From the NCBI GenBank assembly GCA_050115495.1, contig JASFQK010000047.1, positions 1 to 43,927 of the forward strand: 43,927 nucleotides of DNA, given 5' to 3'. This DNA is from Phycisphaerae bacterium. GTDB taxonomy: Bacteria > Planctomycetota > Phycisphaerae > UBA1845 > Fen-1342. The position numbers were made by a program, and so were the translations under genes. Below are positions 9,085 through 43,927 of this stretch, piece by piece. The notes beneath the pieces were generated by a model, which saw nothing but the letters and a program-made list of their open reading frames with translations, did no database searches and was not told the origin of the DNA. Position 1 is the first letter of the stretch, and each line of letters begins with the position of its first letter.

Positions 9085-9110
9085 CGGGCTGGTGGTTGCT
9101 GCACGTCGAG

Positions 9111-12228: not shown

Positions 12229-12237
12229 GGATTGGCT

Positions 12238-13731: not shown

Positions 13732-15209
13732 TCCGCACCGCAGTACAACCCGTCGCCCGCCGCCACCAGCCGCGACACGGCTTTACGCTGGTCGAAATGC
13801 TCGTCTCGCTGGCGGTGCTGACGGTGGCCCTGACCATCATCGGCGTGGTCTTCTCGGTCGCGACGAAGACGACCCGCCAGGCGGCGGCGTACTCCGAGGC
13901 GAACAACTGGGTTCGCCAGTTCATGCAGCAGATCGAGGAAGACCTGCGGCAGTGCGAACCGTCGCAGAGCGTGCTGGTGCTCGTCGGCCGGACGCAGGCT
14001 GCGGCCCTGACCCCCGATTTGCTCAAGGCGGGTCGCTTCCATCGCGTGCAAGTGGGCAAGACGCAGATGTCGCCCGAGGCCGCGGAATTGACCGCCGCAC
14101 CGCCGGACGGCTACAGCGACCCGCGGGCCGATCTCCTCATGTTCTTCACGAACCGGGCCATGGCCTCGCAGGCGCCGCCCGCGGATCCGAATCCGGTCTC
14201 GGACCCCTTCGGCTATGCCTGTCGTAACGGGGCCCGTTTCTCGCCGATCGAGGTCGTCTACGGCCACGCGGCGCTGGACGAGCCGGCGTTCAACCCCGGC
14301 AGTCCGCCGAAATACGACTGGCCGGCGTTCGGCGACGAACGCCACATCGAGGAGACGGTCGACGGTTCCGACAACCCGCAGCGCCTGAGCATCATCCCGG
14401 CGAACCACTGGCATCTCGGCCGCCGGGCGACGATCCTGCGCGGTCCAACGAACCGACCGCCCGACGTCAATGACGCGGAGTACCACGTCGGCGTTACCCC
14501 GTACCTCGCCCGATGCCAGCCGTATGAGGACGGCGGGCACATGCCCGGCGACGGGGCCCTCTTCAGCCTGCCCATGTTCCTCCGTCTTCTGGGGCCGGAG
14601 TCGCCGAACTTCGTCGGCGGCAATGCTTCGGCCATCTGCCGGCCATATTACTTCCCGGGCGGCAATCCCACCTGGGATGGCGATGTGGTTGACGCCATCA
14701 ACTCGCTGCTCTACGCCAACGGCGGTGAGAGTCTCCACCACGTGGCGACGGTGTTCGAGAATCCGCCGCCCGAGCTCGAAACCAACCTGGGCGTGCACAT
14801 GCTGCCCGGCTGTGCGTGGTTCCAAGTCGAGTTTCTCATGCCCGAGGATCCACGCAACAGCGTGGACTACGCCCCGGATAGCCAGTGGACCGGGACCTTC
14901 AGTAAGCGATATGACCTGCCGCTCTGGACCCAGGTCGAGCCGGACCAAACGTACGTCTTCGTCCCCGACACGCAGGCCAACCGGACCCGGATCGCGTCCG
15001 AGTTGATTTCGCTTGGCGGCAACGGCTACCGCATCGACGACTTTGCCGGCGTGGTCCCGTTCAGCCCCGGGGATCCGCGTTGGGACACGGTCGCCAATCG
15101 CCGGATTCGCCTCTGGCCGTATGCGATACGGATCACGGTGCACGTGTTCGATCCCGACGGCCGCCTCGAGCAGCCGATCGTGCGGAGCCTCGTGCATCGC
15201 TTTGACTAG
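13728..15209 (+). CDS. Minor (pseudo)pilin, GspJ/PilW-like position, enlarged
   Basis: GTG start overlaps the previous stop (GTGA). HG|FTLVEMLVSLAVL, QIEEDL, and C-terminal WPYAIRITVHVFD typical of J/W-type pilins. Confidence 0.85.
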   Translation: MIRTAVQPVARRHQPRHGFTLVEMLVSLAVLTVALTIIGVVFSVATKTTRQAAAYSEANNWVRQFMQQIEEDLRQCEPSQSVLVLVGRTQAAALTPDLLKAGRFHRVQVGKTQMSPEAAELTAAPPDGYSDPRADLLMFFTNRAMASQAPPADPNPVSDPFGYACRNGARFSPIEVVYGHAALDEPAFNPGSPPKYDWPAFGDERHIEETVDGSDNPQRLSIIPANHWHLGRRATILRGPTNRPPDVNDAEYHVGVTPYLARCQPYEDGGHMPGDGALFSLPMFLRLLGPESPNFVGGNASAICRPYYFPGGNPTWDGDVVDAINSLLYANGGESLHHVATVFENPPPELETNLGVHMLPGCAWFQVEFLMPEDPRNSVDYAPDSQWTGTFSKRYDLPLWTQVEPDQTYVFVPDTQANRTRIASELISLGGNGYRIDDFAGVVPFSPGDPRWDTVANRRIRLWPYAIRITVHVFDPDGRLEQPIVRSLVHRFD

Positions 15210-15472
15210 CTCGCCGGGTGCGCGGCGGCGCTGGTGATAATCCTGGACGTTGCCCCGGCGGCTATCGGCCGTGGTGGGGCGTGTGCGGCATGGAAGCGAG
15301 CGGCGGTATCCCACGGCGACCCGATTGGGTCCTGGCCAGGTGGAATGATAACTCGATTTCTTACCAGACGTTCCAGCCGGTCGTGGGAAACCTGGGGGCT
15401 TTGACGCTCGCCGGACAATGGAAACGGGACGAGCGGATGACCGATGGCCATCCATAAGTGTGTAGGTGCTGG

Positions 15473-18400
15473 ATGAAACGAGTACGAAGACATCCCCGGC
15501 GAGCGACGGTGCTGGTCATGATCGTCGGCCTGTTGGCGACGCTCTTCCTGATCGTCACGGCCTACATCACCCTGGCCCGCTTCGACAAGCTCACTGCCGC
15601 GAGCTTCAAGCGCAGCCAGACGGCCGAGGACGTCCTCGATAACGTCAACACGTTTGTCCTCTCGAGGATGCGGCAGGCCTGGGCCGACGCCAACGGCAAC
15701 CTGCTGGCCGGCGGCCGCGAAGACCCCGACAACCTCAGCGGTACCGGCCCCGGCAGCGTCCTCGACAGCTATATGCAGCCCGCGGTCCCCGGCTATCGCG
15801 GCTCGCGCTGGCTCGCCGGCAGCGAGGCGGTGCGTGACTGCAATCTGCCGGCTCCGGCCGACCGGTTTGAGCAGCTTCGCCTGTATCGCCAGACGGTTTC
15901 GTCCTTCGCGGCGGCGGACGTGCCGGCCCAGAACATGCCCCTGGCGGGCTGGGGGATGGGGGCGACCGGCTGGCCGATTCCCGGCGGACAGCCGCGCGTA
16001 CCCGGGCTGATTCTCGAAGATCCGAACGACGGCGATAACTACGCGCTCTCCGGCGACGATCTCGTGCGCTTCGTCCGCAATCCGACCATGGATGCGGACG
16101 GCTCGGGTATGCCCGACACGAACCTGACCGCCATGGCGCCGACCATCGAGCTGGCCAACGCCGTGGCCGACGTGCCGGTGCACGTGCCCGTCCGGCTCGA
16201 TCCGCTGACGTCCAACACGCTCTACTTCGATTCGAGCGCGATCGGCGACCCGGACAACGACATCTTCGCCGCCCAGTATCAGCGCTACGCCGACCAGGTC
16301 CGGTACGAGCCGGCGGTGAAGGTCATCTCCAACGGCGGCTTCGTGCCGCTGACCTCGCCGGGCCGGTATATCAACCCGGGCGATGTGTGGAACCGCCAGT
16401 TCGTGGTGGGGATGTTCAACTGGTGCCGGTACCTGGGGAGCCCCGCTGATCTGCAGATGGACGAGTCCACGGACAACGCCCTGCTGAACGGGCTGTGGGC
16501 GGCGGCCGATGAGGTCGAGCCGCTCCTGCGCTACCGCGGCGGGCTGCTGGCGAACTACACCGACGAGCGGCTGGGCTCGGTGCCCGAGGTGCTTACCGAC
16601 CTGCGCGACCGCTTCCACCGCACGTTCCGCGTGTACTACGACGACAAGCTCAATACGAAGCTCGACGACAGCCAGCGCTTCAACCTGGCGTCGGCGCGCA
16701 CGGACTGGACCGGCCCGTACGAGTGGGACGCCTACCGCGCCGGCGGCACGCTCGATCCGGACGCGTACAACTACGCCCTCGGTCAGCCAACGGCCAACCC
16801 GCTCCAGTACTACGTTCAGCGCCGGCTCTTCACGACCATCAGCAACAGCGACGACTTGGCCCGCGACGTGACGCCGGAGTACCCGAAACCGGCCCTGCTT
16901 CCGCCGACCATCCCCGGCAGGGACCCGGATATGGGCATCTATCCCGGGCAGCTCAAGTTCTACCTCGGTGATCTCGAGAAGGCGTTCGCCGTCGACGGCC
17001 GTTACATTGTCAACGACCATGTCCAAGTCGGCTCGGTGGCCGTGCCGGTCGGCAGCAAGATCGTTCGCCGGCTGGCAAACTACTACTACGAGATGCTCGC
17101 GGACTACAGGGGCTGGGACGGCCAGGCGAATGCCACCGAAGCGGTGACTCGGCGCGAGCAGGCCTTCATGCTCGCCGTGAACACGCTGGCCTTCATCGCT
17201 CCGCGCGTCCAGAATCCGGACAATGGCACGCCGGGCTTCATCGATGCGGTCTGGTACATCGACTACTTCGACGGCAGCGGCATCGCCAGGACCTACGTCG
17301 GCACCGCCCCGCAGCCGTTCTTCTCCGAGGCGGTTCTCTACTGCGACGACGGTGCGGATCTCGCCCTCGGTCTGGAGCTGTTCAACCCGTACGACTCGCT
17401 CCCCTCGGGCGGCAACCCGGGGAACGACAAGTTCTGCAAGGTGCAGACGGACCCGTACGCGCTGGATCTCTCCCAGTTCGTGTTCCGCGTGACCTTCAAC
17501 GACGACCCTACGGTCATCCTGCAGCGGTCGCTCAACCAGATCGAGTTGCGGACGGGCGGCTGGGCGGAGCGTTTGGTCGGGCGCAACTTCCTGTCCGTCT
17601 CGCTGGACACCGGGACCAACACCGACCTGCGGGACAACTGCGATGGCCTGCTCTCTCTCCAACCTGCCGAAGAGGTCGACCCGCCGACCGGGACCGCGCG
17701 GATCGTCAAGCTATGGCTCTACCGCAAGGGCAGTGACCACAACCTGTACCTGGTCGACAGCATGGTTCTTGGCGATCCAGGCTCGGACGTCATATTGCCG
17801 CAGTTCAATTCGGACCGGTGGGTCGTGGACGTGTACCGCGACAGCATGTCGTACGAGCCGGCCTTCGCCTGGGATACGGACGGAGCGGTCGGCGCCCTGC
17901 CGACCGCCACGGACCGTCCGGCCCGCTGGGGTATGGCGACCAACCTGCGCCGCGGGGACCAGGAAGAGGACGTTTCGGTGCCCGGGCAGCCCGGGACGCA
18001 GTCGTTCTCGATCTCGGGTTACGCGAACAACCTGGGAATTCCCGACGCGGGTGGCGGATCGTCACAGCACTTCGCCCCGAGCGCACCGCTGTACACGATG
18101 AACGCCGACCTGGGTGGCTACTACCAGAACGATTACATCGTACACGGTGCCCGACGGCCAAAATCGCTGCCCACGGTCGGGTTCCTCCTATTCGTGCCGC
18201 GCTTCGCGACGGTGAGCCCGGCGTCGGACGGCAACGTGAAGTGCATGAGTGACGTCCTGGCCGAGCAGTGGGAGATCGGCGACAGTATCAAGCGCCCGCT
18301 GTACAAGCTCGAATCCTCGTTGGATAACGAGGGCTATCCGGCCGACTTCGGGCACATGTGGATCTTCGACAACAACCAGGAAGTCAGTTCGAATTCGCTC

Positions 18401-19414
18401 TTCGACGACGAGCGTGCCGGGCAGCTCCCGTGGGGTCTGCTGGTCTTCGACTACTTCACGACGGTCTCGCCCTACGAGGACGTGGACAACGACGGCCGGG
18501 CTGATATCGATCCGCTCCGCATCGCCGGACGCATCAACATCAACACCGCCCCGTGGTATGTTCTGGCCGGCCTGCCTGTGTTGAATCCGGACAGCGCGCT
18601 GGGCCTGACGGTGAACATTGATGGTTCGGCCTCGCCGGCTTTCTGGAGCGCCGAGTCGGGCGTCCTGGTGGGGAACGTGATGCTGCCGAACACGGCGGCG
18701 ACCATCGCGCGCTTCGTCGATACGACGAATCCGACGCCCCTGTACCGCGACACGAGCGCCAATTGGCTGCGTCTCGGCCCGTACCTGGCCCAGGCTGCAG
18801 CGTCCTACCGCGACCGCGTCCGGTACGTTTCCCCCGCCTACACCGCAGCGGCCTACGTTGGGGCCGAGCAGCGCAGCGGCTTCCGGCCGTTCGCCATCTA
18901 CGGCGAGATGCGCAACAGCCATACCGCCGGCGGCAAGACCTTGAGCCACCGCGGCTTCCTGAGCCTCGGCGAACTGGCGAACGTCGTCGGCTTCGACCTG
19001 CGCGATCCGCTGGGCGGCACCGGTTACAAGCCGCTCACCACAAAGCTGATCATCAACGGCCAGTGGCAGGCCCGGCCCGACTTCTTCAAGGCCGTCAGCC
19101 TCATCGCGCTGCTGGATACGCATTTCCTCACCACCAGCAGCAACACGTTCACCGTGTACGCTTCGGTGATGGACAAGCTCAATCCGCAGGCCAGCATCCG
19201 CGAGCAGTTGACGGTCGACCGCAGCAACATGCTGCCTCGGCTGGTGCTCTACGACGCCGACGGCGACGGCATCAAGGAAACGCCGCTGCTCCAGGATACG
19301 GATGGCGACCTCGCGCACATCCCCGACGCTCCCGTACTGATCGAGAGCGACGCGCTGCCCGAGATCGTCACCCAGCGCCGTATCGGCTACTTCAACACGA
19401 AGTTTGACCAGTAG
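15473..19414 (+). CDS. Giant GspK/PilX-like pilus-tip protein, 1313 aa
   Basis: Basic leader plus hydrophobic helix lacking E5 (RRATVLVMIVGLL). GspK-like RININTAP..VL, GFLSLGELANV, LTTSSNTFTV. Several DxDxDG Ca-binding-like motifs. Last gene of the pilin operon. Confidence 0.75.
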   Translation: MKRVRRHPRRATVLVMIVGLLATLFLIVTAYITLARFDKLTAASFKRSQTAEDVLDNVNTFVLSRMRQAWADANGNLLAGGREDPDNLSGTGPGSVLDSYMQPAVPGYRGSRWLAGSEAVRDCNLPAPADRFEQLRLYRQTVSSFAAADVPAQNMPLAGWGMGATGWPIPGGQPRVPGLILEDPNDGDNYALSGDDLVRFVRNPTMDADGSGMPDTNLTAMAPTIELANAVADVPVHVPVRLDPLTSNTLYFDSSAIGDPDNDIFAAQYQRYADQVRYEPAVKVISNGGFVPLTSPGRYINPGDVWNRQFVVGMFNWCRYLGSPADLQMDESTDNALLNGLWAAADEVEPLLRYRGGLLANYTDERLGSVPEVLTDLRDRFHRTFRVYYDDKLNTKLDDSQRFNLASARTDWTGPYEWDAYRAGGTLDPDAYNYALGQPTANPLQYYVQRRLFTTISNSDDLARDVTPEYPKPALLPPTIPGRDPDMGIYPGQLKFYLGDLEKAFAVDGRYIVNDHVQVGSVAVPVGSKIVRRLANYYYEMLADYRGWDGQANATEAVTRREQAFMLAVNTLAFIAPRVQNPDNGTPGFIDAVWYIDYFDGSGIARTYVGTAPQPFFSEAVLYCDDGADLALGLELFNPYDSLPSGGNPGNDKFCKVQTDPYALDLSQFVFRVTFNDDPTVILQRSLNQIELRTGGWAERLVGRNFLSVSLDTGTNTDLRDNCDGLLSLQPAEEVDPPTGTARIVKLWLYRKGSDHNLYLVDSMVLGDPGSDVILPQFNSDRWVVDVYRDSMSYEPAFAWDTDGAVGALPTATDRPARWGMATNLRRGDQEEDVSVPGQPGTQSFSISGYANNLGIPDAGGGSSQHFAPSAPLYTMNADLGGYYQNDYIVHGARRPKSLPTVGFLLFVPRFATVSPASDGNVKCMSDVLAEQWEIGDSIKRPLYKLESSLDNEGYPADFGHMWIFDNNQEVSSNSLFDDERAGQLPWGLLVFDYFTTVSPYEDVDNDGRADIDPLRIAGRININTAPWYVLAGLPVLNPDSALGLTVNIDGSASPAFWSAESGVLVGNVMLPNTAATIARFVDTTNPTPLYRDTSANWLRLGPYLAQAAASYRDRVRYVSPAYTAAAYVGAEQRSGFRPFAIYGEMRNSHTAGGKTLSHRGFLSLGELANVVGFDLRDPLGGTGYKPLTTKLIINGQWQARPDFFKAVSLIALLDTHFLTTSSNTFTVYASVMDKLNPQASIREQLTVDRSNMLPRLVLYDADGDGIKETPLLQDTDGDLAHIPDAPVLIESDALPEIVTQRRIGYFNTKFDQ

Positions 19415-29762: not shown

Positions 29763-30587
29763 ATGGCGTGGCAGCTTGGCGTCGTGTCGTTTCTGAACTC
29801 CCGGCCGCTCATCGACGGGCTCGACGAAGACCCGGATGTTCGCTGCCTGTTCGACGTGCCCGCCGCCCTGGCCGCCCGGCTGGCCGCGGGTGAGGTCGAT
29901 GCGGCCCTCATCCCGATCGTGGACGTGCTCCGCGCCGCCGGCCGCTACCAAGTCGTCTCCGACGCCTGCATCGGCTCCGACGGCGAGACGATGACCGTTC
30001 GCGTTTTCTCACGCGTCCCGCCCGAAGAGCTCACCACGCTCTGGGTTGACCCCGACTCGCATACGTCCGTGGCCCTAGCCCGCGTGTTGTGGCAGGAGCG
30101 CTTCGGCCGCCAACTGACGTTACAGCCGCTGTCGCCACTCAGCGCCGGCCTCGCCGGCGTCGAGGCGGCCCTGCTCATCGGCGACAAGGTCGTCGATCCC
30201 TCGCGCGAGCGCTTCCCCCACGAAATCGACTTGGGCGACACCTGGCGACAGCACACCGGTTTGCCCTTCGTCTTCGCCGTCTGGGCCGTCCGCGCCGGGG
30301 ACGACACTCCCGGCGAGTCGCTCGCCACGTTGCTGTCCGAGGCCCGCGACCGCGGCGTCCGCCGGGCGGGCGAGCTCGCCGCCGCCTTCGGGCCGCAGCG
30401 CGGCTGGCCGGTCGACCTCGCCGTCCGCTACCTCAGGCAGTGCCTGACCTTCACGCTCGACGCGCGCCACGTCGCCGGCGCTGAACGCTTCGCCCGCTCC
30501 TGCGCCGCACTCGACCTCGTGCCGGCGCGCGCCGAGATCCCCTGGTCCGGACACGTTTCGGCCGCGGGGCCCGTCCGAACGCCATGA
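29763..30587 (+). CDS. mqnA: Chorismate dehydratase (futalosine pathway)
   Basis: LGVVSFLNSRPL, DVPAAL, ACIGSDG, SHTSVAL, LLIGD, DLGDTW..TGLPFVFAVW. Overlaps mqnC (ATGA). Confidence 0.92.
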   Translation: MAWQLGVVSFLNSRPLIDGLDEDPDVRCLFDVPAALAARLAAGEVDAALIPIVDVLRAAGRYQVVSDACIGSDGETMTVRVFSRVPPEELTTLWVDPDSHTSVALARVLWQERFGRQLTLQPLSPLSAGLAGVEAALLIGDKVVDPSRERFPHEIDLGDTWRQHTGLPFVFAVWAVRAGDDTPGESLATLLSEARDRGVRRAGELAAAFGPQRGWPVDLAVRYLRQCLTFTLDARHVAGAERFARSCAALDLVPARAEIPWSGHVSAAGPVRTP

Positions 30588-31924
30588 GCACGACCGACCG
30601 CACGTCGACCCCTCGCCTTACGGATGAGCAGGCCCTGCACCTGTACCGCGCGGCCTCGCTGCACGAACTCGGCCGCCGCGCCGCCGCTCGCACCGCCGAA
30701 TTGCATCCCGAGCCCTATCGCACGTACGTCGTCGATCGCAACATCAACTACGCGAATGTCTGCACCGCCCGCTGCCTGTTCTGCAACTTCTCCCGCCAAC
30801 CGGGCGACGATGCGGCGTACGTGCTCAGCTTTGTGGAGATCGGCCGCAAGATCGAAGAGCTGCTCGCCATCGGCGGCACGCAGATTCTCATGCAGGGCGG
30901 GCTCGTGCCGGGCGAGGATCACCCCAGCGGACAGGGCCGTCCCTTCTCGTGGTATCTCGAGCTGCTGCGCTTCGTCAAAACGCACTACCCGACGATCCAC
31001 ATTCACGCGTTCAGCCCGCCGGAGATCTGGGCGTTTCATCGTATGTTCGACATTCCGCTCGCCGACGTGCTCCGCCGACTGCAGGACGCCGGCCTGGACA
31101 CGATTCCGGGCGGTGGGGGGGAGATCCTCGTCGATCGCGTGCGGCGGAAGATCGGCCGCGGCAAGGCGATGACGGACGAATGGCTCGGCGTCATGCGGGC
31201 CGCGCATCAGATTGGCATGAAGACAAGCTGCACGATGATGTTCGGGCACATCGAGACGATCCCCGAACGCATCGAGCATCTCCGCCGACTGCGCGACCTC
31301 CAGGACGAAACCGGCGGCTTCACCGCGTTCATCCACTGGCCCTTCCAGCCCGAAGGCACGCCGTTGGGTCGATGGTCCCAGGCGCCGGCGGCCGACACGG
31401 AGGTCGGCCGTTGCGAGGGGAGTCGTGAGTCTGTTGGCGACCGACGTCGGCCACGGGGGGCCGACGCTACAAAGACGGCCGGCACGGAGACCGGCCGCTA
31501 CGAGGTGGCCGATCGGAACGACGCACCCGGTGTGCCACTGCTCTTGAGCAGTGCAGACTCCAGTGATTCTGCCGCTCTCGCCGCCACCCTCCGCCCCGAA
31601 CCCGATGGCGAGCGCCTCTTCCTCGCCGACGCCGATGCATACTTGCGATTGCTGGCGGTCGCTCGTCTCTATCTCGACAACATCCCGAACATCCAGTCGA
31701 GCTGGGTGACGATGGGGCCGAAGATCGGCCAACTGGCCCTGCTCTTCGGGGCGAACGACATGGGCTCAGTGATGATGGAGGAGAACGTCGTCTCTTCTGC
31801 CGGCACGACCTTCCGCCTCAACGAGGAGCAGATCCGCCGACTGATCACCGACGCCGGCTGGACGCCTCGTCGGCGGGACCAGTACTACCGCCCGCTCGAC
31901 GACCCGCCGACGGCGTCCGGCTGA
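30584..31924 (+). CDS. mqnC: Cyclic dehypoxanthinyl futalosine synthase (radical SAM) carrying an in-frame REP-derived insertion
   Basis: RTYVVDRNINYANVCTARCLFCNF (CxxxCxxC), ILMQGG, PGGGGEIL, TMMFGHIE, NIQSSWVTMG, GANDMGSVMMEENVVS. Confidence 0.9.
   Translation: MSTTDRTSTPRLTDEQALHLYRAASLHELGRRAAARTAELHPEPYRTYVVDRNINYANVCTARCLFCNFSRQPGDDAAYVLSFVEIGRKIEELLAIGGTQILMQGGLVPGEDHPSGQGRPFSWYLELLRFVKTHYPTIHIHAFSPPEIWAFHRMFDIPLADVLRRLQDAGLDTIPGGGGEILVDRVRRKIGRGKAMTDEWLGVMRAAHQIGMKTSCTMMFGHIETIPERIEHLRRLRDLQDETGGFTAFIHWPFQPEGTPLGRWSQAPAADTEVGRCEGSRESVGDRRRPRGADATKTAGTETGRYEVADRNDAPGVPLLLSSADSSDSAALAATLRPEPDGERLFLADADAYLRLLAVARLYLDNIPNIQSSWVTMGPKIGQLALLFGANDMGSVMMEENVVSSAGTTFRLNEEQIRRLITDAGWTPRRRDQYYRPLDDPPTASG
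31387..31553. repeat. Four REP-like palindromes inside the mqnC reading frame
   Basis: 31387-31414 (degenerate); 31443-31470 identical to 3784 and 21922; 31474-31501 identical to 3753; 31530-31553 identical to 19561 and 21869. Confidence 0.92.
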
Positions 31925-34830: not shown

Positions 34831-35643
34831 ATGTACGTGGCCGACGCTATTCTGGTGATGCTTGTCCTCCTGTTCCTGCTGGTCGTGGCAGCCGTCACGA
34901 AGGTTTCGGCTCGCTTCCGTGTGTTCTTCCGCGAGCAGGTTGGGCGACTCATGCCCAGGCACGCTCGGGACGGGATCCTCCAGGCGTTCGAGGACTACGA
35001 GGAAGACTACGGCGCGAGCCCGCTGAGCAGCTACATCTGGCTGGTGTTCTCAGCGATCGGCTCCTATCTATGGGAGCGAGCGCATAACCACTACAAGTAT
35101 GGGTTCTTCGCTGTCGTCCTGGCCGCCACCGTTGTGATGACGATTTGTTCGGCGATGTTCGCCGTACGCTCGGCGACCGCGTGGTACGCGCAGGTGTGGA
35201 TCCCGGCCGGCATCTTCATGGCGATAACGGTGCGCTGGCCGGCGTATGGTGTTCTGCTGGCGATCGCAAGCGCGTGGATCTGTGGGGTGGTCCAGCCGAG
35301 TGTCTGGCACGCGACGTGGGTGCTGCCGAATCTCGTGCAGGCCGTCTTTCTCGTGTGGTTGTATCACTACCTGGGCTGGCGCATCCGCGACATCACGCCT
35401 CTGAATATTGCGCGTTTCGCGTTCATGGTGCTAATCGCATCGATGGTTGGCGGGTTGTGTGGGGCATGGGCGGGGACCATCCATGACCTGCTGACCGGTG
35501 GGGTGTGCATCGGGACCGGGTTCGAGGCATGGGCGCAATGGACATGGAGCGATTTGGTCGGGACCCTGCTGGCCGCGCCCTTTGTCTTCGCGGGCTACCC
35601 GTGCGGGACCGAACGTGACGTAGATCAGCCGAAGCGCTCGTGA
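34831..35643 (+). CDS. Stand-alone MASE1-like membrane sensor protein
   Basis: AAGGAG RBS; VWIPAGI, PNLVQA, WAQWTWSDLVGTLLAAP match the MASE1 pattern; no output domain. Confidence 0.7.
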   Translation: MYVADAILVMLVLLFLLVVAAVTKVSARFRVFFREQVGRLMPRHARDGILQAFEDYEEDYGASPLSSYIWLVFSAIGSYLWERAHNHYKYGFFAVVLAATVVMTICSAMFAVRSATAWYAQVWIPAGIFMAITVRWPAYGVLLAIASAWICGVVQPSVWHATWVLPNLVQAVFLVWLYHYLGWRIRDITPLNIARFAFMVLIASMVGGLCGAWAGTIHDLLTGGVCIGTGFEAWAQWTWSDLVGTLLAAPFVFAGYPCGTERDVDQPKRS

Positions 35644-35719
35644 GACACGGGCAAGAGGCCCACTCGCCGGAGCATGCTGATGCCCGGCGAGGTCGTAGCG
35701 AAGGAGCTGGAGACAACGC

Positions 35720-36067
35720 ATGACGCTAACACATAAAATGTTCCTGGTCTTGAGTGAAGTATCTGTTGAGGAGGGTCGGCACGCCTACGCCATACACAAG
35801 GCATTGAACCGAGAACATCTTCCCGCATGGCTACGCCGGTCGTTTCTGGCGCCGGCAATCGGCAGCACGTACGGGGCCATCGAGGAACTGCTGCATCGAA
35901 GGCTGATTTACACCAGGTCGAGGTTGATCCGTGGAAACGCCCGCAACGTGTACTTCATGACGGCGGAAGGGCGGCGCGTGTTGTCGCAACTCTGGGCGTA
36001 CCTGGAGGAGCACAAACCCGGCAGACTGTTCAAGGGAAGACATGGCGCAACGGAGGCAGGGGGATAG
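35720..36067 (+). CDS. PadR-family winged-helix transcriptional regulator
   Basis: HAYAIHK..GSTYGAIEELLHRRLI..RNVYFMTAEGRRVL follows the PadR pattern (HGY..GtlYp.L.rLe..GlI..RkyY.lT..Gr..L). GGAG RBS. Confidence 0.8.
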   Translation: MTLTHKMFLVLSEVSVEEGRHAYAIHKALNREHLPAWLRRSFLAPAIGSTYGAIEELLHRRLIYTRSRLIRGNARNVYFMTAEGRRVLSQLWAYLEEHKPGRLFKGRHGATEAGG

Positions 36068-36090: not shown

Positions 36091-36490
36091 AGCCCCGGGT
36101 GAGCGGATGGACGCTTGGCGGCCCTTCGCGAAACCCGGGGACATGCCCCGCCCCCAGCGCCAAGCCTGCGCAATGGGCCGTGCTGCGTTCCGTCGCCCGC
36201 TGCGCGGGCTGAAGAGGGGGGCATGATGCGCCTGACCCCGGGTTCCGTCCGCCGGTGACGGTGCATTGGGGATGCGGTCGTTGTTGCCGGCTGGTGATCG
36301 GTTGCGCATAGTGTGCCCGTTCGACGGCGGACTCCACCCGGGGCTACATTCCGGGGCCCTTCGGGACCATAAGTGGGACACGCATCGGCACGGCCGGGTA
36401 CCAGTCCCGGCGGGACGGCTGAGTGTAGCCCGGCACGCAGTGCTGGGACCGCGCGACCGCTCTTTCCTTCAAGTCCCGGCGGGATGACTG
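36091..36490. repeat. MITE/REPIN-like intergenic repeat block
   Basis: Inverted AGCCCCGGGTG (36091-36101) / CACCCGGGGCT (36335-36345); direct AGTCCCGGCGGGAYGRCTG at 36403 and 36472. Confidence 0.6.
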
Positions 36491-36548: not shown

Positions 36549-38135
36549 TCATCCGTCCCAGTCCGGACAGCGCACGTCGCACACGCGACAACCGGCGTCG
36601 CACCACTTCTGTTCTGCCGCCAGCGCCTGGGCTTCGCGCTGCACTTTTCCCAAATACACATACACGAGCGTAGCCATGAACAGAAGGACGAACGCCGGCG
36701 CCGTACCGAAGATCGACATGGCGACGAGCGTTGCGACCTGATTCGACTGGCCCATGAGGCTGGATGTTGGTAACGCCGTGCCCGGAGCGGACGCGGTGAT
36801 GCCGGCTGTGAGAAGCGATAGCATGGCGGGCCAGAGCGGAATGAGTTGCGCGCCGGCGAAGAGCAGGCCGCAAAAGGTCAGCTCCTGCATAACGGCTCCC
36901 CATCGTTCTGTCGGTACACGCCGAAGGAGCGTGCTGCAGTACCAGCAGAGCGCCGCCAACAACGGCCACGCGAGGCACTGCCACGTCAACGCTACGATGC
37001 ACTGCCAACTGCCTTCGGCCAGCAGCGCCCAGCTGCAGACCGGCAGCAGGCAAGCCCGGCGTGTCAGGCGTCTGGACCAGTGATCGGCGGCGAGCCCGCG
37101 CAGGTCAGGCTCACGCCAGGTGAAGACGTAGGTGCCCGCGAACAGGAGGGTCAGTGCGCACGCTGCGGACACGGCCGCCGTTGTCAGCGTGGCCATGCCA
37201 GCGGATTGCGTTGCACCGTCCAGCACCAGACTGGCCCAGCCAATCCCGGTGAAGACTACGGGGACCAGCGACGCCAAGCCGGCGGCCAGCAGGAGGAGGC
37301 AGCCGACCCGAAGCCGCCGGAGCCAGCGCGCGTCGGCCAGGGCGAGACGCTGTCCACCGAGCGCGCGTTTCACCGGCGTACCGCACTCCGGGCAACGCTC
37401 CGCCAGCCGGTGGCCGCGCAGGTCGTAATCACACGCCACGCAGCGGATGCCGATGAGGTTGCCACTGTGCAGGGCGACCCGTAGCGCGGAGCCATCGGCC
37501 AGTTCTGGCGGCGTGGTCTCGGGCGCGCGGTATGCGACGTCAAGAAGAGGCGCGATCAGGCGAATGATGGGGTTGCGACCACAGTGTTGGTGGACGGCCA
37601 CCGCGATCTGCTCTGCGATGTGTTCGGGCGACTCGTAATAGATGTCCTCGATGAGCCGATGTCGGCCCTTGCCGGAGTTGCTGGTCTTACCGAGGGTGCG
37701 GGTGACCTCGTTGCCGTCGCGCTTCTCTGATGGACGCAGAAGCAGCCGGATTCCGCGGTGCCCGGCACGGCGCCAGAGGCCTTTCCTGGCGGATCTCAGC
37801 ATTGAGGTCAGGCGAATCTCGATTTCCTCAATGTCCGCCAGATTGGTGCTCTGCAGTGTTCCCCAGCGGGAACGCACGTGAAGCTCTTTGGACTGGATAG
37901 CGACGTGTCGCGGAAGCAGGTAACAGCAGATGAAGCTGGCGATGAGGAGTAACGGGAGCACGCACAAAACACAGAGCCAGGCAGACACAACCGGGCCATC
38001 GAAGAGCAGCGATACGGACAGCACCAACGCCAGTGGGGTGGTCGCCAGGGTTGCTTGCGTGAAGGCGGCCACCGCCTTGCCTGTGCTGACACGTGCGATC
38101 ACGCGTTCGGTTTCGTTCGGATCCGTACCACCCAT
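36549..38135 (-). CDS. Multi-pass membrane protein with central zinc ribbon, 528 aa
   Basis: Two N-terminal TM segments, a soluble PH-like stretch, CVACDYDLRG..RCPECG, about 5-6 further TM segments, Cys-rich tail CDAGCRVCDVRCP. Start at ATG 38135 is uncertain. Confidence 0.7.
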   Translation of the reverse strand: MGGTDPNETERVIARVSTGKAVAAFTQATLATTPLALVLSVSLLFDGPVVSAWLCVLCVLPLLLIASFICCYLLPRHVAIQSKELHVRSRWGTLQSTNLADIEEIEIRLTSMLRSARKGLWRRAGHRGIRLLLRPSEKRDGNEVTRTLGKTSNSGKGRHRLIEDIYYESPEHIAEQIAVAVHQHCGRNPIIRLIAPLLDVAYRAPETTPPELADGSALRVALHSGNLIGIRCVACDYDLRGHRLAERCPECGTPVKRALGGQRLALADARWLRRLRVGCLLLLAAGLASLVPVVFTGIGWASLVLDGATQSAGMATLTTAAVSAACALTLLFAGTYVFTWREPDLRGLAADHWSRRLTRRACLLPVCSWALLAEGSWQCIVALTWQCLAWPLLAALCWYCSTLLRRVPTERWGAVMQELTFCGLLFAGAQLIPLWPAMLSLLTAGITASAPGTALPTSSLMGQSNQVATLVAMSIFGTAPAFVLLFMATLVYVYLGKVQREAQALAAEQKWCDAGCRVCDVRCPDWDG

Positions 38136-38334
38136 CACTTCGCCCCGCGGGGTGCTCAGCGTGCGTGCCGCCGGCGGCGTGCGGGGCCGAAGCCCCTCGA
38201 CACTCCCGGGCGCGCCGCCGACGCATGGTACCGCATTGCTGCTCCGGCGGGGTAGTCTCCTTCCGGCGGAGGGTACGGACTGCTGGGCGCGGCCCGGACA
38301 CGCGGTTTCCGGCCCAGGGCTCACGGCTGACGGC

Positions 38335-38485
38335 GAGGCGAAGACGTCTGGTGTCCCGGCGCACCGGGAGACGCTGTGGAGACGTCGGCCACAGGGGGCC
38401 GGCGCTACAAGACGTCCGGTGCGGAGCCCGGACGCTACCGGCTGATGGCTAGGCGAAGACGTCCGGTGCAGAGCCCGGACGCTAC
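38335..38485. repeat. REP cluster in the divergent intergenic region
   Basis: GACGTCGGCCACAGGGGGCCGGCGCTAC 38381-38408; GACGTCCGGTGCRGAGCCCGGACGCTAC 38411-38438 and 38458-38485. Confidence 0.85.
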
Positions 38486-38611: not shown

Positions 38612-38992
38612 ATGGCGAGGAAGATCAGAGTCAAGCAATCGTCGGTGGCGGTGTCGGTCGTCGTGGCCGTGTTGACGTTCCCCATCTTCTGCGCCGAACT
38701 GGGCTTCCTGGCGACGGTGGCGGGCGCGGGTATCGACAGTGTGCTCGACGACGTCGGCATCCACCTCGGTGCGGTGGGATGGAACATCGTCATCCTGGTT
38801 CTCAGCGTCGCCGTGCTGGCGTCCGCGGGATTGCTGTCGCGGCACGTGTACGTCACGATGCGCTGGAAGAACGCCGAAATCGGCGGGCGATATTGTGTGC
38901 AGTGCCAGTATGACCTGACCGGCAACGTCAGCGGACGCTGCCCGGAGTGCGGATTGGAACTGACGGATGACGGCGGGGCGGAGAGGAGCTGA
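38612..38992 (+). CDS. Small membrane zinc-ribbon protein, paralog 1 (126 aa)
   Basis: MARKIRVK, hydrophobic core, YVTMRW, GGRYCVQCQYDLTGNVSGRCPECG. Confidence 0.85.
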   Translation: MARKIRVKQSSVAVSVVVAVLTFPIFCAELGFLATVAGAGIDSVLDDVGIHLGAVGWNIVILVLSVAVLASAGLLSRHVYVTMRWKNAEIGGRYCVQCQYDLTGNVSGRCPECGLELTDDGGAERS

Positions 38993-39056
38993 GTGGGGCG
39001 GGCCGAGCGGCTCGAGCCGGTTCCAGATGTTCTTGGGCAAGTCGGTGATCAGGACA

Positions 39057-39437
39057 ATGCCGAGGACGGTCAGGGTTAGGTATTCATCTGTGTTGGCGTC
39101 GCTCCTTGTCGCCGCGATGGTGTTCCTGTGCGTCGGTGCGGCGACGTTCTACGTGATTGCCCTGGTGACGTTCACGATTGCCGAGCGGTTCGGCCTGATC
39201 AATCTCTATGCCTACCGGACACTGACGGTGATGCTTGCGGGCACATTATGGAGTGTGTCGCTCGTGTTCGCCGGTTTGCTGGCACGGCGCGCCTACGCCC
39301 TGATGCGCTGGCAGGACGCCGAGCTCGGTGGGCGGTATTGCGTGCAGTGCCGGTACGACCTGACCGGCAACGTCAGCGGACGATGCCCGGAGTGTGGGTT
39401 GGACCTGACGGACGACGAGGATCCGGGAAGAGCATGA
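39057..39437 (+). CDS. Small membrane zinc-ribbon protein, paralog 2 (126 aa)
   Basis: MPRTVRVR, hydrophobic core, YALMRW, GGRYCVQCRYDLTGNVSGRCPECG. Confidence 0.85.
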   Translation: MPRTVRVRYSSVLASLLVAAMVFLCVGAATFYVIALVTFTIAERFGLINLYAYRTLTVMLAGTLWSVSLVFAGLLARRAYALMRWQDAELGGRYCVQCRYDLTGNVSGRCPECGLDLTDDEDPGRA

Positions 39438-39603
39438 ATACGGCGGCGTCTTGGCGCATTGCACATGTCCGCCGCACACCGGCCTGCTGGAAGGGACCAA
39501 TAACAGAATCAAGGTCATCAAACGAATCGTGTACGGCTACCGTGACGACGAGTACTTCTTCCTCGTAATCCGAGCCGCCTTCCCCGGAAAAGCCGGATGA
39601 ACC
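39430..39603 (+). mobile_element. ISL3-family remnant: transposase C-terminus plus right end
   Basis: Frame 39439-39600 reads YGGVLAHCTCPPHTGLLEGTNNRIKVIKRIVYGYRDDEYFFLVIRAAFPGKAG*, matching the ISL3 EGxNNxIKxIKRxxYGxR motif. Ends GGATGAACC, like an ISL3 terminal IR. No start codon or N-terminal part. Confidence 0.85.
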
Positions 39604-39626
39604 TGGTATCCAGGCGACGCGCCCGA

Positions 39627-39656
39627 TTGACCCGCCAGCTTCCGGTGCCGTACTAT
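39627..39656 (+). promoter_or_regulatory. Sigma70-type promoter of the riboswitch-metE transcript
   Basis: TTGACC, 18-nt spacer, TACTAT, immediately before the riboswitch. Confidence 0.6.
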
Positions 39657-39659
39657 ACA

Positions 39660-39840
39660 GCCTCGTTGGCTGCGGGAAACGGAAGCCGGTGAGAATCCGG
39701 CGCAGTCGCGCTACTGTGATCGGGATGCCAATCGGGGCAGACCACTGAGATATCCGCGAGTTCTCGCCCTGAGGACCTGCGGCAAAAATCTTGGGAAGGC
39801 CACCCGCTGAGAAACCCGAAAGCCAGGAGACGCCCCGTAG
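39660..39840 (+). ncRNA. Cobalamin riboswitch
   Basis: GGAAGCCGGTGAGAATCCGGCGCAGTCGCGCTACTGTGA (39681-39719), CCACTG (39742), GGGAAGG (39793), B12 box AGCCAGGAGAC (39821-39831). Lies upstream of metE. Confidence 0.9.
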
Positions 39841-39981
39841 CTGGTTCGGTCACGGCCTCGCGTGAAGGCTGCGAACGGCTCGGGCGTCCGCCATCCCGGC
39901 TCCCCCAACCCTTCGCAACTCGGTGACGCAGGCCCGTCCTGGTTGGCTTCCGCGCGATACGGAAGCGGAAAGGCATGCGAC

Positions 39982-42258
39982 ATGCTTACGCACACGCTCG
40001 GTTTTCCCCGCATCGGTACACAGCGTGAACTCAAACGAACGCTTGAAGGCTACTGGGCCGGCACAAAGGACCTGGGGTACCTGCAGTCGATCACCCGCGA
40101 CTTGCGGCAGGAGCACTGGCGCCTTCAGCGCGACGCCGGCGTCGATCTCATCCCCGTTGGCGATTTCTCGCTCTACGACCACGTCCTGGACGTGACCGCC
40201 ATGCTCGGCGCCGTGCCGGCGCGCTTCGAGTGGAAGGGGGATCGCGTCGATCCGGCCACGTACTTTCGGATGGCGCGCGGCGGAGACAATGTGCCAGCCA
40301 TGGAAATGACCAAGTGGTTCGACACCAACTACCACTACATCGTCCCCGAACTACATCCCGGCCAGTCCATGCGATTGGCATCGATGCAACTCCTGGAACA
40401 GACGGAAGAGGCGATGGCAGCCGGCTTCCGAGCAAAGCCCGTACTCCTGGGGCCGTTTACATATCTCAAGCTCAGCAAGCCGATGGTCGCTGGTTTCAGC
40501 GCATTGGATCAACTGGATGTGATTCTGCCCATCTATCAGCAGATGCTGCGCGCCCTCGGCAAGCGGGTCGAATGGATCCAGATCGATGAACCGGCCCTGG
40601 TGCAGGACCTTTCCGAGAAGGAGCAACTCGTATTCCGGCTTGCGATCGAACAACTGACTCGCGCCGCTGGTCAGGCCCGGATTCTGTTGGCCACATATTT
40701 CGGGGCGTTGGGCGCGAACACGACATTGGCCTGTATGCCTCAGGTGGGGGCTGTGCATGTTGACCTCGCCCGTGCGCCCGAACAGCTCGACGAAGTGCTG
40801 AAGCACCTGGCCGACGATCAGGCACTTTCCCTGGGTATCGTGGACGGGCGCAATATCTGGCGCGTTGACGCCGATATGGCGCTGACGCAGATTCAACGTG
40901 CCGTCGATGCGCTCGGAATCGATCGCGTCATGCTGGGTTCTTCGTGCTCTCTGCTGCACGTGCCGATTGATCTCGGCACGGAGTCGCGGTTGGACGCCGA
41001 AGTCAGATCGTGGCTGGCGTTCGCCAAGCAGAAGTGCGGTGAATTACGAATGCTCGCGGACATGGCCATTGGGCAGGATGTTGGCGCTGCGTTGGAACGG
41101 AATCGGGCGGCATGGCAATCCCGGCGCAGCAGCACGCGCGTTACCAATCCAGCGGTTCGCGAGCGACTGGCGAACTTGAGCAGTGACATGTTCTGTCGGC
41201 GATCGCCGGTCGAGAAGCGGAAGCCCGTCCAGCAGAAGCGACTGGGCCTGCCGCTGCTTCCCACGACGACGATCGGCTCGTTCCCCCAAACACGGGAGAT
41301 TCGGGTGACGCGGCGGCAGTTCAAAGCGAACGAGATTTCGGCGGATCAATACACCGCCGCAATGCACGGCTTCATTCGCGACTGCGTCGAACAGCAACAT
41401 CAGCTCGGCCTTGACGTTCTGGTGCATGGCGAGCCGGAGCGCAACGACATGGTGGAGTACTTCGGTGAGCAGCTCGACGGGTTCTGCTTCACGTCGAACG
41501 GCTGGGTGCAGAGCTACGGCAGCCGCTGCGTCAAGCCGCCGATCATCTTCGGCGACGTGCAGCGCCCACGGCCGATGACCGTCGATTGGATCAAGCACGC
41601 CCAGTCGCTGACGGACAAACCCATGAAGGGCATGCTCACCGGTCCGGTGACGATTCTCTGCTGGAGTTTCGTGCGCGACGACCAGCCGCGGCGCGACACC
41701 TGCATGCAGCTCGCGCTGGCCATTCGCGACGAAGTGTTGGACTTGGAGCGGGCCGGCGTACAGATCATCCAGGTCGACGAAGCGGCCCTGCGCGAGGGCC
41801 TGCCGCTACGGCGATCCGATTGGAACGAATACCTGACGTGGGCCGTGGATGCATTCCGCCTGGCGACGACCGGCGTGCGGGACGAGACCCAGCTTCACAC
41901 GCACATGTGCTACAGCGAATTCAACCAGATTGTGGGCTGGATCGCCAAAATGGACGCCGACGTAATCAGCATCGAATCCAGCCGCAGCAAGATGGAGCTG
42001 CTTCAGGCTTTCCGGCAATTCGAATACCCGAACGACATCGGGCCGGGCGTCTACGACATTCACAGCCCACGTGTGCCATCCGTAGAGGAAATCGCATCGT
42101 TGCTCTCGGCCGCAGCGCAAGTCATCCGGCCAGAGCGGTTGTGGGTCAATCCGGATTGCGGCCTGAAGACCCGCGGCTGGCCGGAAGCGATTGCATCGAT
42201 TCAGAATATGGTGGCGGCTGCCAGAGCTGTTCGGCATGAATTCCAGAAAGTGTCGTGA
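39982..42258 (+). CDS. metE: Cobalamin-independent methionine synthase
   Basis: LGFPRIG, MTKWFDTNYHY, TTTIGSFPQT, HGEPERNDMVEYF, HTHMCYS, WVNPDCGLKTR. Confidence 0.98.
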   Translation: MLTHTLGFPRIGTQRELKRTLEGYWAGTKDLGYLQSITRDLRQEHWRLQRDAGVDLIPVGDFSLYDHVLDVTAMLGAVPARFEWKGDRVDPATYFRMARGGDNVPAMEMTKWFDTNYHYIVPELHPGQSMRLASMQLLEQTEEAMAAGFRAKPVLLGPFTYLKLSKPMVAGFSALDQLDVILPIYQQMLRALGKRVEWIQIDEPALVQDLSEKEQLVFRLAIEQLTRAAGQARILLATYFGALGANTTLACMPQVGAVHVDLARAPEQLDEVLKHLADDQALSLGIVDGRNIWRVDADMALTQIQRAVDALGIDRVMLGSSCSLLHVPIDLGTESRLDAEVRSWLAFAKQKCGELRMLADMAIGQDVGAALERNRAAWQSRRSSTRVTNPAVRERLANLSSDMFCRRSPVEKRKPVQQKRLGLPLLPTTTIGSFPQTREIRVTRRQFKANEISADQYTAAMHGFIRDCVEQQHQLGLDVLVHGEPERNDMVEYFGEQLDGFCFTSNGWVQSYGSRCVKPPIIFGDVQRPRPMTVDWIKHAQSLTDKPMKGMLTGPVTILCWSFVRDDQPRRDTCMQLALAIRDEVLDLERAGVQIIQVDEAALREGLPLRRSDWNEYLTWAVDAFRLATTGVRDETQLHTHMCYSEFNQIVGWIAKMDADVISIESSRSKMELLQAFRQFEYPNDIGPGVYDIHSPRVPSVEEIASLLSAAAQVIRPERLWVNPDCGLKTRGWPEAIASIQNMVAAARAVRHEFQKVS

Positions 42259-42414
42259 ACAGCCTCCACGCGGGGGGAAGCAAACGCCGTAGGGCGGGTT
42301 TCACCGCCGATTCGCACGAGCAGCGGGCACCGCCGGACGGATCGAGTCAGCGTAGCGGACGATCGGCGGGCCGAGCCCGTCACACATGCGGACGTGCATC
42401 GTCACGGTGGGATG

Positions 42415-42807
42415 ATGGCGAGGAAGTACAGGGTCAAGCGGGCATCGGTAGTGACGTCACTGGCCGTGGCCGTGCTGGTCTTTCCGTTTGCGTTCATTGC
42501 CGTCGGCGGGCTGTTGCTCGGCATTGGCGCCCTTGTGCTGCCGGTGATGTTGAACACGGGCATCCAGGGCAACGGGTCGTTGGCCGACATCATCATTTGC
42601 GTCGCGGGCGGGCTGCCGCTTCTGGTGGCCGGGCTGGTGTCCTGGTGGATGTACGTCACGATGCGCTGGGAGGATGCCGAGGTCGGTGGGCGCTATTGTG
42701 TTCAGTGCGGCTATGACCTGACCGGCAACGTCAGCGGGCGCTGTCCGGAGTGCGGGCTTGCTCGGGCCGGCGACAGCCGGGCGGCGGACGGGCAGCCGCC
42801 GGGTTGA
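42415..42807 (+). CDS. Small membrane zinc-ribbon protein, paralog 3 (130 aa)
   Basis: MARKYRVK, hydrophobic core, YVTMRW, GGRYCVQCGYDLTGNVSGRCPECG. Confidence 0.85.
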   Translation: MARKYRVKRASVVTSLAVAVLVFPFAFIAVGGLLLGIGALVLPVMLNTGIQGNGSLADIIICVAGGLPLLVAGLVSWWMYVTMRWEDAEVGGRYCVQCGYDLTGNVSGRCPECGLARAGDSRAADGQPPG

Positions 42808-42847
42808 ACCCGCGCCGCCGGTGCCCGTACGGGTTGATGGTGAGACG

Positions 42848-43255
42848 ATGGCCAGGAGGATCAGAGTCCAGGGTGCATCCGTGCTGGCGTCGCTTGCCGT
42901 GGCTGCGCTGGTGTTTCCGTTCTTCGCTGGACTGACGTACTACGTGATGGCGCAGGTGGTCAACAGCTTCGCGGACAGGCTCTTCCCCCCCAGGTGGTCG
43001 CCTCCTGATTGGGTCGGAATGATCCTGGTCGGCGTTGTTCTGGGCCTGCCACTGCTGCTGGCCTACCTCGGATCGCGATGGGTATACAGCATCATGCGCT
43101 GGAAGGACGTCGTAATCGGCGGGCGATACTGCGTTCAGTGTGGCTACGATCTTACGGGCAATGTCAGTGGACGATGTCCCGAGTGCGGCTTGGACCTGAC
43201 GGACGGCGAGACCGCGCCGAACGGAGCGACCGGCGAAGTTGAGGCTGACGGATAG
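42848..43255 (+). CDS. Small membrane zinc-ribbon protein, paralog 4 (135 aa)
   Basis: MARRIRVQ, hydrophobic core, YSIMRW, GGRYCVQCGYDLTGNVSGRCPECG. Confidence 0.85.
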   Translation: MARRIRVQGASVLASLAVAALVFPFFAGLTYYVMAQVVNSFADRLFPPRWSPPDWVGMILVGVVLGLPLLLAYLGSRWVYSIMRWKDVVIGGRYCVQCGYDLTGNVSGRCPECGLDLTDGETAPNGATGEVEADG

Positions 43256-43389
43256 GCAATGCCGAGACTGTAGGGCGGGTTTCACCCGCCGGTTCGTGCG
43301 ATGGGCCGTTGCCGCCGACTGTGCCGAACCGGCGTGACGAACGATCGGCGGGCGAAGCCCGCCCGCGTGTCCGGCCGATTGGTGAGGCG

Positions 43390-43785
43390 ATGCCGAGGAA
43401 GATCAAAATCGCGCGGACGCCGGCGATTGTGGCGCTCGGCTTGGCGGTGCTCGCCTTTCCGTTCGCGTGCGCTGCGGCGGGCGTGCTCACGATTCCGATC
43501 GTCCTGGCCGTCGCGCCGGTGGTGATGGCCATCGGCTTCTTCGCCGGCGCGGCCCCGGACGAGGTTCTCTATTACACGATCGGGGGTGCGATGTTGCTGG
43601 CGGCGGCGCTGATGTCGTGGCGCGTGTACGCTGACCTGCGCTGGGAGACCATCGACAACACCGGGCGTTATTGCCTGCGGTGCGGCTATGACCTGACGGG
43701 TAACGTCAGCGGGCGATGTCCGGAGTGCGGGCGGGAGCTGACGGACGACGAAGGCGCAGCGAATGGGTCGCGCGTCGGGTCGTAG
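43390..43785 (+). CDS. Small membrane zinc-ribbon protein, paralog 5 (131 aa)
   Basis: MPRKIKIA, hydrophobic core, YADLRW, TGRYCLRCGYDLTGNVSGRCPECG. Confidence 0.85.
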   Translation: MPRKIKIARTPAIVALGLAVLAFPFACAAAGVLTIPIVLAVAPVVMAIGFFAGAAPDEVLYYTIGGAMLLAAALMSWRVYADLRWETIDNTGRYCLRCGYDLTGNVSGRCPECGRELTDDEGAANGSRVGS

Positions 43786-43804
43786 CGGTAGGGCGGGTTT
43801 CACC

Positions 43805-43927
43805 CAATGGTACTAACCTTGGTCTTGACAGAATAGAGTCCTCGCTGATCTAAGTTGGTTATTGAGCAAGACTTAGTCAGGAGGACTCGCCGATGTTCAC
43901 GGATGAACACAGACGTATCGTATGGGA
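43805..43927 (+). mobile_element. Probable left end of an insertion sequence (possibly IS4-like), with the start of an ORF at 43893 (MFTDEHRRIVW..., cut by the window edge)
   Basis: The REP at 43788 is cut at ..TTTCACC|CAATGG. Abrupt shift to lower GC, TTGACA, and a hairpin at 43836-43888 that covers the AGGAGG RBS. The transposase itself is not visible. Confidence 0.45.

Follow-up and report, generated by a model that had tools for sequence, protein, structure and literature searches.

Five paralogous genes at the end of a contig

The stretch of DNA analysed here (the window; 43,927 nt, positions 1 to 43,927 of contig JASFQK010000047.1 in the Phycisphaerae assembly GCA_050115495.1) carries five plus-strand genes for small membrane proteins, located at 38612..38992 (paralog 1, 126 aa), 39057..39437 (paralog 2, 126 aa), 42415..42807 (paralog 3, 130 aa), 42848..43255 (paralog 4, 135 aa) and 43390..43785 (paralog 5, 131 aa), and predicted to consist of a two-transmembrane hairpin and a cytoplasmic zinc ribbon with four cysteines (C4). 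The original prediction, made from the sequence alone, saw in them an array of fixed-length, hypervariable proteins that could form a receptor or immunity repertoire with a common downstream partner. We find that the five genes arose by tandem duplication long ago and belong to one accessory subfamily within a large, unnamed Phycisphaerae superfamily of membrane proteins, and that the array is a local expansion within an accessory stretch ending at a multi-copy element. It is not a single continuous array: genes 2 and 3 are separated by an ISL3 transposase remnant, a cobalamin riboswitch and metE, leaving a 2+3 arrangement.

All five open reading frames (ORFs) are real at their predicted starts and align without gaps through residue 123, with R3, F23, Y80, R84, W85, G92-Y94, C95, C98 and Y100-G114 at identical positions; 30 columns are invariant among the five. 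Pairwise amino acid identity amounts to 86-100% over residues 92-113, 25-71% over residues 1-24, and 12-31% over residues 25-75. The description of the middle as almost unalignable applies to four of the ten pairs, which over codons 25-64 score no better than shuffled sequence, and does not extend to the rest: L69, A72 and L74 are invariant, genes 2 and 4 match in register at 57 of 120 nt and genes 3 and 5 at 61 of 120 nt (shuffle p printed as 0.0000 with 5000 shuffles in both cases), three further pairs are weakly similar (p 0.02-0.04), and one is borderline (p 0.08). The similarity of start contexts was likewise borne out in part, with an upstream GGT at -9 in four of the five genes and none in gene 2. 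R3 is encoded in all five genes by the rare codon AGG, which makes up 2% of arginine codons in the genome.

Predicted fold and the C-terminal ribbon

AlphaFold2, run for paralog 4 with a 70-sequence alignment, returned a model (pLDDT 94.6, pTM 0.73) in which a strand (residues 4-8) is followed by helices 12-45 and 54-84, a second strand (85-89) and then the zinc ribbon. The N-terminal strand and the strand containing the RW pair adjoin the 20-residue C4 ribbon, and the conserved residues, helix positions excepted, gather at one end of the hairpin. The model predicts inner-membrane two-helix hairpins with a short outer loop, their inner ends being formed by the strand clasp and the ribbon. The conserved end is probably cytoplasmic, because the N-terminus is basic, and the same side is likely for the ribbon itself, because basic residues precede it; the variable part would then comprise the membrane core and the short outer loop.

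The ribbon follows the pattern CxxCxY[DN]LxGNxSGxCPECG. C95, C98, C110 and C113 are invariant in 70 of 70 hairpin homologs, and the two CxxC knuckles and compact ribbon place it in the C4 zinc ribbon fold class; it presumably binds zinc, given the four cysteines. Conservation extends beyond them, with Y, L, T, G, N, S, G, P and E invariant or at least 90% conserved in 91 ribbons and in the 70 hairpin homologs, the former set having been picked by a motif that already fixes several of these residues.

None of the five paralogs reached the curated cut-off of the Pfam families DZR, Zn_Ribbon_1 or Zn_ribbon_3 (best score 21.4 versus 27.3 bits), and no other Pfam or NCBIfam family scored above its cut-off for them; among the 70 subfamily members there were weak generic ribbon or rubredoxin-like matches, with DZR at E<=0.001 in 16 of 70 (best E 3e-5). 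The hairpin model yielded no Foldseek match at E<=0.001, and its best VIA-align hits (Z up to 7.4) were unrelated helical hairpins. The isolated ribbon model gave Z<=2.4 against known structures, the weak matches being other C4 ribbons or zinc fingers. Matches to C2H2 arrays in a sequence search of solved structures, which arose via repeated Cys words, were taken as spurious. The closest Atlas clusters are unnamed and belong to Planctomycetota, and no description of the family was found in the literature at the level of listings and abstract openings, subscription papers and supplements excepted.

Distribution in the genome and in relatives

The strict ribbon pattern occurs in 54 copies in this genome, and a profile search found 84 ribbons in 82 ORFs. 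All 82 contain a hydrophobic window, versus 34 of 125 control genes, a contrast favoured by the scoring of the ribbon ORFs as stop-to-stop frames and of the controls as start-trimmed genes. Among ribbons of the GN type, 27 of 30 follow a helix within 40 aa, and the mean net charge before the ribbon is +3.2. Ribbon genes are co-oriented, tightly packed and often overlapping: for 35 of the 82 own ORFs, another ribbon gene lies on the same strand at most 1.5 kb away, tandem arrangements were seen at 29 of 78 outside loci, and the arrays often mix subfamilies. Many proteins carry two to four ribbons, and in several families of this genome the ribbon is N-terminal. Eight tandem paralogs of about 300 aa (L015:4848-12660, on G000:C7) have an N-terminal ribbon, at position 28 in seven of them, and variable helices; that array is of a single family and combines a constant ribbon with variable helices as the five-gene array does. 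Two-gene units are repeated at L019:4150-15166 (on G000:C16) and L025:3819-6776, each pairing a multi-helix protein of 464-480 aa with an internal ribbon and a 476-509 aa protein without a Pfam family.

Outside this genome, the strict motif was present in all 13 genomes of the same order (4-55 copies) and in 23 of 87 others of the same class, and in none of 115 genomes from other classes of Planctomycetota. At the family level its presence is mostly all-or-none (6/6 and 11/13 versus 0/13, 0/10 and 0/9), with intermediate values of 2/13 and 3/4. Named ribbon matches are mostly from Phycisphaerae or Planctomycetota, a few records being labelled otherwise. A whole-protein profile retrieved 10,959 clusters (50% identity) at E<=0.001 and 263 at 1e-10, the weak tail possibly including other ribbons. 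A membrane protein of about 245 aa with an N-terminal ribbon is kept in low-copy genomes in unrelated surroundings (L157:5050-5805, L159:5681-6409, L160:5732-6463 and L161:5596-6318), and may be the ancestral core member. None of 50,697 phage records contained the ribbon. One viral contig did, as a membrane gene (L154:2973-3494) on the strand opposite to genes that we read from their sequences as phage-terminase-like.

The hairpin body of the five paralogs, taken without its ribbon, was found in three of 60 relatives, once in each, amid ribbon genes whose bodies differ. The five-gene array was missing in all four congeners examined (of six) behind the conserved genes at 29763-31924, which we take to belong to the menaquinone pathway. 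Because the body is rare in relatives and the array is absent behind these flanking genes, we regard the five copies as a local expansion.

Portability of the ribbon

The same module is found on longer proteins, comprising CstA (seven of 120 listed), carriers of the major facilitator superfamily (MFS) type (four) and DUF7544 (four), with further fusions to DUF2339, RDD, Rce1-like, HEAT, Clp_N, GT9 and RHS. Some of these could be read-through joins of neighbouring genes; the CstA case is an internal insertion. In 121 longer proteins, the ribbon lies within 40 aa of the C-terminal end in 70 and is internal in 47, the pattern not being found in the remaining four. In seven CstA proteins (P0219, P0237, P0247, P0251, P0254, P0263 and P0270) it occupies the loop after a conserved TTLD motif; it was seen in that loop at none of 14 other loci where TTLD was found (16 loci had a different motif), and in none of 30 CstA ORFs of relatives. 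The ribbon-bearing CstA proteins form a clade, other CstA proteins of the order having no loop ribbon.

A near-identical peptide recurring in unrelated genes, including by insertion into CstA, and the presence of identical DNA runs of up to 32 nt between some copies might recall selfish DNA, a repeat or recombination site spreading by in-frame insertion into genes. Such an origin is very improbable and already largely refuted, as the codons follow host usage and GC content (29 own ribbons have a codon identity of 0.58 versus an expected 0.56, and GC content at third codon positions tracks that of the locus, with rho 0.51 over 131 ribbons), the ribbon is restricted to proteins with hydrophobic segments, and 70 of the 82 nucleotide-profile matches are known in-frame ribbons, seven read as further or decayed ribbons, and five are chance-like. 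With no pool of non-coding copies, we rejected ribbon DNA as a recombination site. The ribbon is constrained as a protein and not as DNA, and it is portable.

The same insertion bears on another alternative, in which the ribbon senses metal or redox state, or has only the structural role of capping helix ends, and the paralogs are accessory membrane proteins under weak constraint. While the low-scoring matches to models of generic ribbons and rubredoxin-like proteins and the relaxed appearance of the middle would suit it, the conservation of non-cysteine residues exceeds what metal binding needs, and placement in a CstA loop answers no structural need; we regard it as quite improbable.

Old paralogs or a diversifying repertoire

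The contrast between the two parts of the paralogs, as originally predicted, holds at the codon level. Mean proportions of synonymous and nonsynonymous differences (pS/pN) are 0.43/0.31 for codons 2-24, 0.56/0.63 for 25-64, 0.48/0.37 for 65-91, and 0.60/0.04 for 92-114. The ratio is thus not uniform along the gene, differences in the ribbon DNA are mostly synonymous, and the cytoplasmic end is under strong purifying selection, the membrane core having diverged far more (pN 0.04 versus 0.63). Synonymous sites are near saturation in all segments, and where amino acids agree, codons agree at 0.51-0.57, versus 0.45-0.54 expected from genome codon usage. Since this is close to expectation, the paralogs are old and their ends have not been homogenised. 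At this depth and saturation, relaxed and positive selection are inseparable for a middle with a ratio near 1.

Strict length does not hold for the wider family. The set comprised 100 outside homolog modules, from which 29 were dropped, and in the 71 with both F23 and W85 aligned their spacing ranges from 36 to 71, with a mode of 58 (13 of 71) and the value of 62 in seven. Indels in the middle, named beforehand as a sign of old paralogs rather than of a diversifying repertoire, are therefore common among homologs. On the nearest branch of a quick homolog tree, in which the window clade is without strong support, three of five outside members have a spacing of 62, and the common length of the five looks inherited; its equality would exceed chance for independent draws from the homologs (2e-4), the copies being related and not independent. 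Neither is the variability peculiar to this locus, with middle identity of 17% among the five versus 15% among the top 26 outside homologs.

It was also proposed that conserved blocks at both ends could support recombinational shuffling. An incongruence length difference (ILD) test gave p 0.019 and 0.007 with a boundary at codons 25-64 that was chosen after data inspection, and p 0.35 and 0.75 with the boundary originally suggested; after scan correction, p was 0.46. In an approximately unbiased (AU) test the middle rejected the flank tree (p 0.012), and one tree was rejected by neither segment. With tests so mixed, recombination among the five paralogs is not shown; the incongruence is lost on correction and the ribbon codons match genome usage, which speaks against shuffling through shared DNA blocks.

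Nor did an immunity or anti-phage role find a counterpart in the searches: none of eight proteins matched PADLOC, none of six matched PHROGs, and there was no toxin family among 11 scanned window proteins, the contig ending 140 nt after gene 5. A template repeat of the kind used by diversity-generating retroelements (DGRs) was not found, no middle having a second copy beyond weak matches of 20-51 nt, and change was not focused on adenine (A involved in 240 of 732 differences). No reverse transcriptase is encoded on this contig, and no integron integrase matched above the TIGR02249 cut-off in this 92%-complete genome. Three reverse transcriptase matches lie elsewhere (G000:C34:42026-42706, C79:3492-3974 and C8:79323-79811). 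Contigs from three other sequencing runs, of low depth and probably from one population, agree with the window at every position that long pieces cover, 151 nt across the variable core of gene 5 (43434-43584) among them, and no same-strand ribbon-to-ribbon joint was present in the source run.

The model in which diversifying selection acts on a receptor or immunity repertoire, and recombination between the conserved ends reshuffles it, could still draw on several of our observations: pN at or above pS in codons 25-64, a patchy accessory subfamily beside traces of insertion sequences (IS), the frequent packing of ribbon genes into tandem arrays, often of mixed subfamilies, and the preference of the middle for a tree other than that of the flanks. 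We nevertheless consider it unlikely in view of the synonymous sites, the variable spacing of homologs, the ILD result after correction with one tree fitting both segments, the identity between runs, and the lack of a defence or phage family match, and it would leave the presence of the same ribbon on CstA and MFS carriers unexplained. Neither the fixed length nor the variable middle points to an active diversifier, and the locus is a cluster of old paralogs rather than a proven diversifying repertoire.

A putative docking tag

The explanation that we favour, with little better than even confidence, is that the ribbon acts as a portable cytoplasmic docking tag for a common partner, the variable parts of the hairpin giving each paralog its own client or cue. 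The tag would be recognised by one lineage-specific cytoplasmic partner, for example machinery for sorting, clustering or turnover. Not bound by the constraint on the tag, the helices and loop would have drifted or been selected towards an intramembrane client or outside cue specific to each paralog, so that every paralog could be an adaptor connecting the common reader with a membrane partner or a signal. Their variety would come from ordinary duplication and long divergence, with no dedicated diversifying mechanism. The idea of a common downstream partner, which formed part of the original prediction, is strengthened because the same ribbon occurs on 82 membrane ORFs and on unrelated transporters.

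Several points weigh against this explanation. No gene recurs beside ribbon genes as a system and no partner was identified; those neighbours that do recur encode large secreted proteins or are housekeeping genes, and nothing links them consistently. Two candidate partners were rejected: PspA, present in one of 17 tag-bearing genomes (not this one) and two of 16 without the tag, and Band_7_1, present in six of 17 and five of 16, respectively. We infer topology and zinc binding from basic residues and cysteines, and the hydrophobicity contrast is aided by the way in which ORFs and controls were scored. The values for the middle (pN 0.63 versus pS 0.56) are also compatible with diversifying selection. 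Support for expression consists of one RNA-library contig of 213 nt, covering 43178-43390, with DNA carry-over possible.

The failure to find a dedicated partner gene is what would be expected if the ribbon bound other copies of itself, forming membrane clusters or hetero-oligomers without a separate reader, and proteins with two to four ribbons and co-oriented, closely packed, often overlapping genes would fit as well. Some genomes, however, have only one or two strict copies and thus little to cluster, and near-invariance over hundreds of unrelated proteins suits a fixed external partner at least equally; we consider self-association rather improbable.

The docking-tag explanation might be extended, with appreciably less confidence and by analogy with eukaryotic sorting signals and NZF fingers. 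In several Phycisphaerae lineages, the ribbon could conceivably be a genome-wide address label for membrane proteins, graftable onto the ends or cytoplasmic loops of any membrane protein, housekeeping transporters included, and recognised by a single lineage-specific machine for sorting, clustering or turnover; tandem arrays like the present one would be that machine's expanding repertoire of variable adaptors.

Taken alone, the array is an ordinary paralog expansion; its interest lies in exposing a very large, unnamed family that no model covers. In part of one class of Planctomycetota, dozens of membrane proteins in a genome bear the ribbon, and that five duplicates end in the same zinc knuckle as some 80 other membrane proteins suggests an undescribed, lineage-wide docking tag, as a portable and nearly invariant cytoplasmic module points to a common partner. 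Planctomycete membranes are unusual, and such a tag could bear on their organisation.

Surroundings of the cluster

The block dividing the array consists of the C-terminal remnant of an ISL3 transposase (39439..39597, plus strand; PF01610, 33.8 bits, cut-off 23; single copy in the genome), lying directly upstream of a cobalamin riboswitch (39626..39852, plus strand; RF00174, 72.7 bits) and metE, a cobalamin-independent methionine synthase gene (39982..42258, plus strand; PF08267 and PF01717). With a GC content of 0.615-0.625 versus 0.665 in the first 34 kb, the 39439-42258 block looks inserted. Upstream of the array, a divergent minus-strand gene (36549..38135, 528 aa) encodes an N-terminal two-transmembrane, PH-like part, an internal ribbon of the same superfamily and a C-terminal part with multiple transmembrane segments, the PH-like label being an Atlas structural lead below the Atlas naming bar. 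Farther upstream, at 34831-36067 (GC 0.614), a gene for a membrane protein weakly matching the N-terminus of a diguanylate cyclase model, presumably MASE1-like (34831-35643), is followed by a PadR-like gene, and a cluster at 4805-19411 encodes proteins whose N-termini, on reading, resemble type II secretion or pilin-like proteins.

Several repeats accompany these genes. A 20-mer at 42286..42305 (plus strand), with more copies at 43267-43286 and 43785-43804, resembles repetitive extragenic palindromic (REP) sequences; its 17-nt core has 60 genome copies and lies near the stop of only two of 82 ribbon ORFs, and as a genome-wide repeat it was rejected as a cassette end or array boundary. The terminal 43803..43927 (plus strand), at the contig break, is the last part of a multi-copy element, probably an IS; its 11 identical matches, this copy counted, all lie at contig ends. 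An Rfam Acido-Lenti-1 match (36403-36447) and a 30-nt repeat in tandem (38319-38485), which occurs 53 times in the genome, look like intergenic repeat families. Promoter and terminator scans gave chance-level results, and no repeat common to all five gene boundaries was found, no attC model having been run.

Comparison with known systems

Tandem variable modules joined to a constant part are known from polymorphic toxin/immunity arrays, integron cassettes and DGR targets; here, unlike in those systems, no toxin neighbour, integrase, template repeat or adenine focus was found. Coding palindromic or mobile repeats such as those resembling the Rickettsia palindromic element (RPE) are conserved at the DNA level and have non-coding copies, whereas the ribbon has neither DNA-level conservation nor a pool of such copies. 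Sorting signals of the PEP-CTERM type combine a motif, a helix and a basic cluster in a strictly C-terminal position, in contrast to the ribbon, which is often internal (47 of 121) or N-terminal. Generic C4 ribbons (DZR, PF12773; Zn_Ribbon_1, PF13240; Zn_ribbon_3, PF13248; and the haloarchaeal CPxCG proteins) share with it the two CxxC knuckles, the short ribbon and portability onto membrane bodies such as RDD. They differ in that the paralogs fall below the curated cut-offs, have a near-invariant Y[DN]LTGNxSG linker, and represent a module present in dozens of copies and limited to part of one class. To RanBP2/NZF-type fingers there is analogy only, the weak matches of the isolated ribbon to Nup153 ZnF1 and ZRANB2 (Z 2.1-2.2) being at noise level.

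The closest parallels are other ribbons placed beneath the membrane. In one study, the phage shock protein (PSP) network of the envelope-stress response includes zinc-ribbon partners, among them B. subtilis YdjG, a band-7-ZnR protein and ZnR-PspC, and small membrane proteins with sub-membrane zinc ribbons are proposed to aid complex assembly (PMC11237479). The likeness consists in sub-membrane ribbons on small membrane proteins, and the window has a PadR-like gene and a PH-like protein nearby; unlike in the PSP/YdjGHI case, this genome has no PspA or band-7 protein at E<=1e-8, and there was no co-occurrence over 33 genomes. SPFH-ribbon proteins are another group with sub-membrane zinc ribbons (PMC10936438). 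CdpC of Haloferax volcanii is a membrane zinc-ribbon protein that binds and anchors FtsZ1 (10.64898/2026.07.16.738847); a zinc ribbon serving as a protein-docking module at the membrane is the feature in common, by analogy only and with no sequence relationship shown. By the tests run, the ribbon is not a member of the PSP, SPFH-ribbon or CdpC systems, and by analogy it may work as these other sub-membrane zinc ribbons do.

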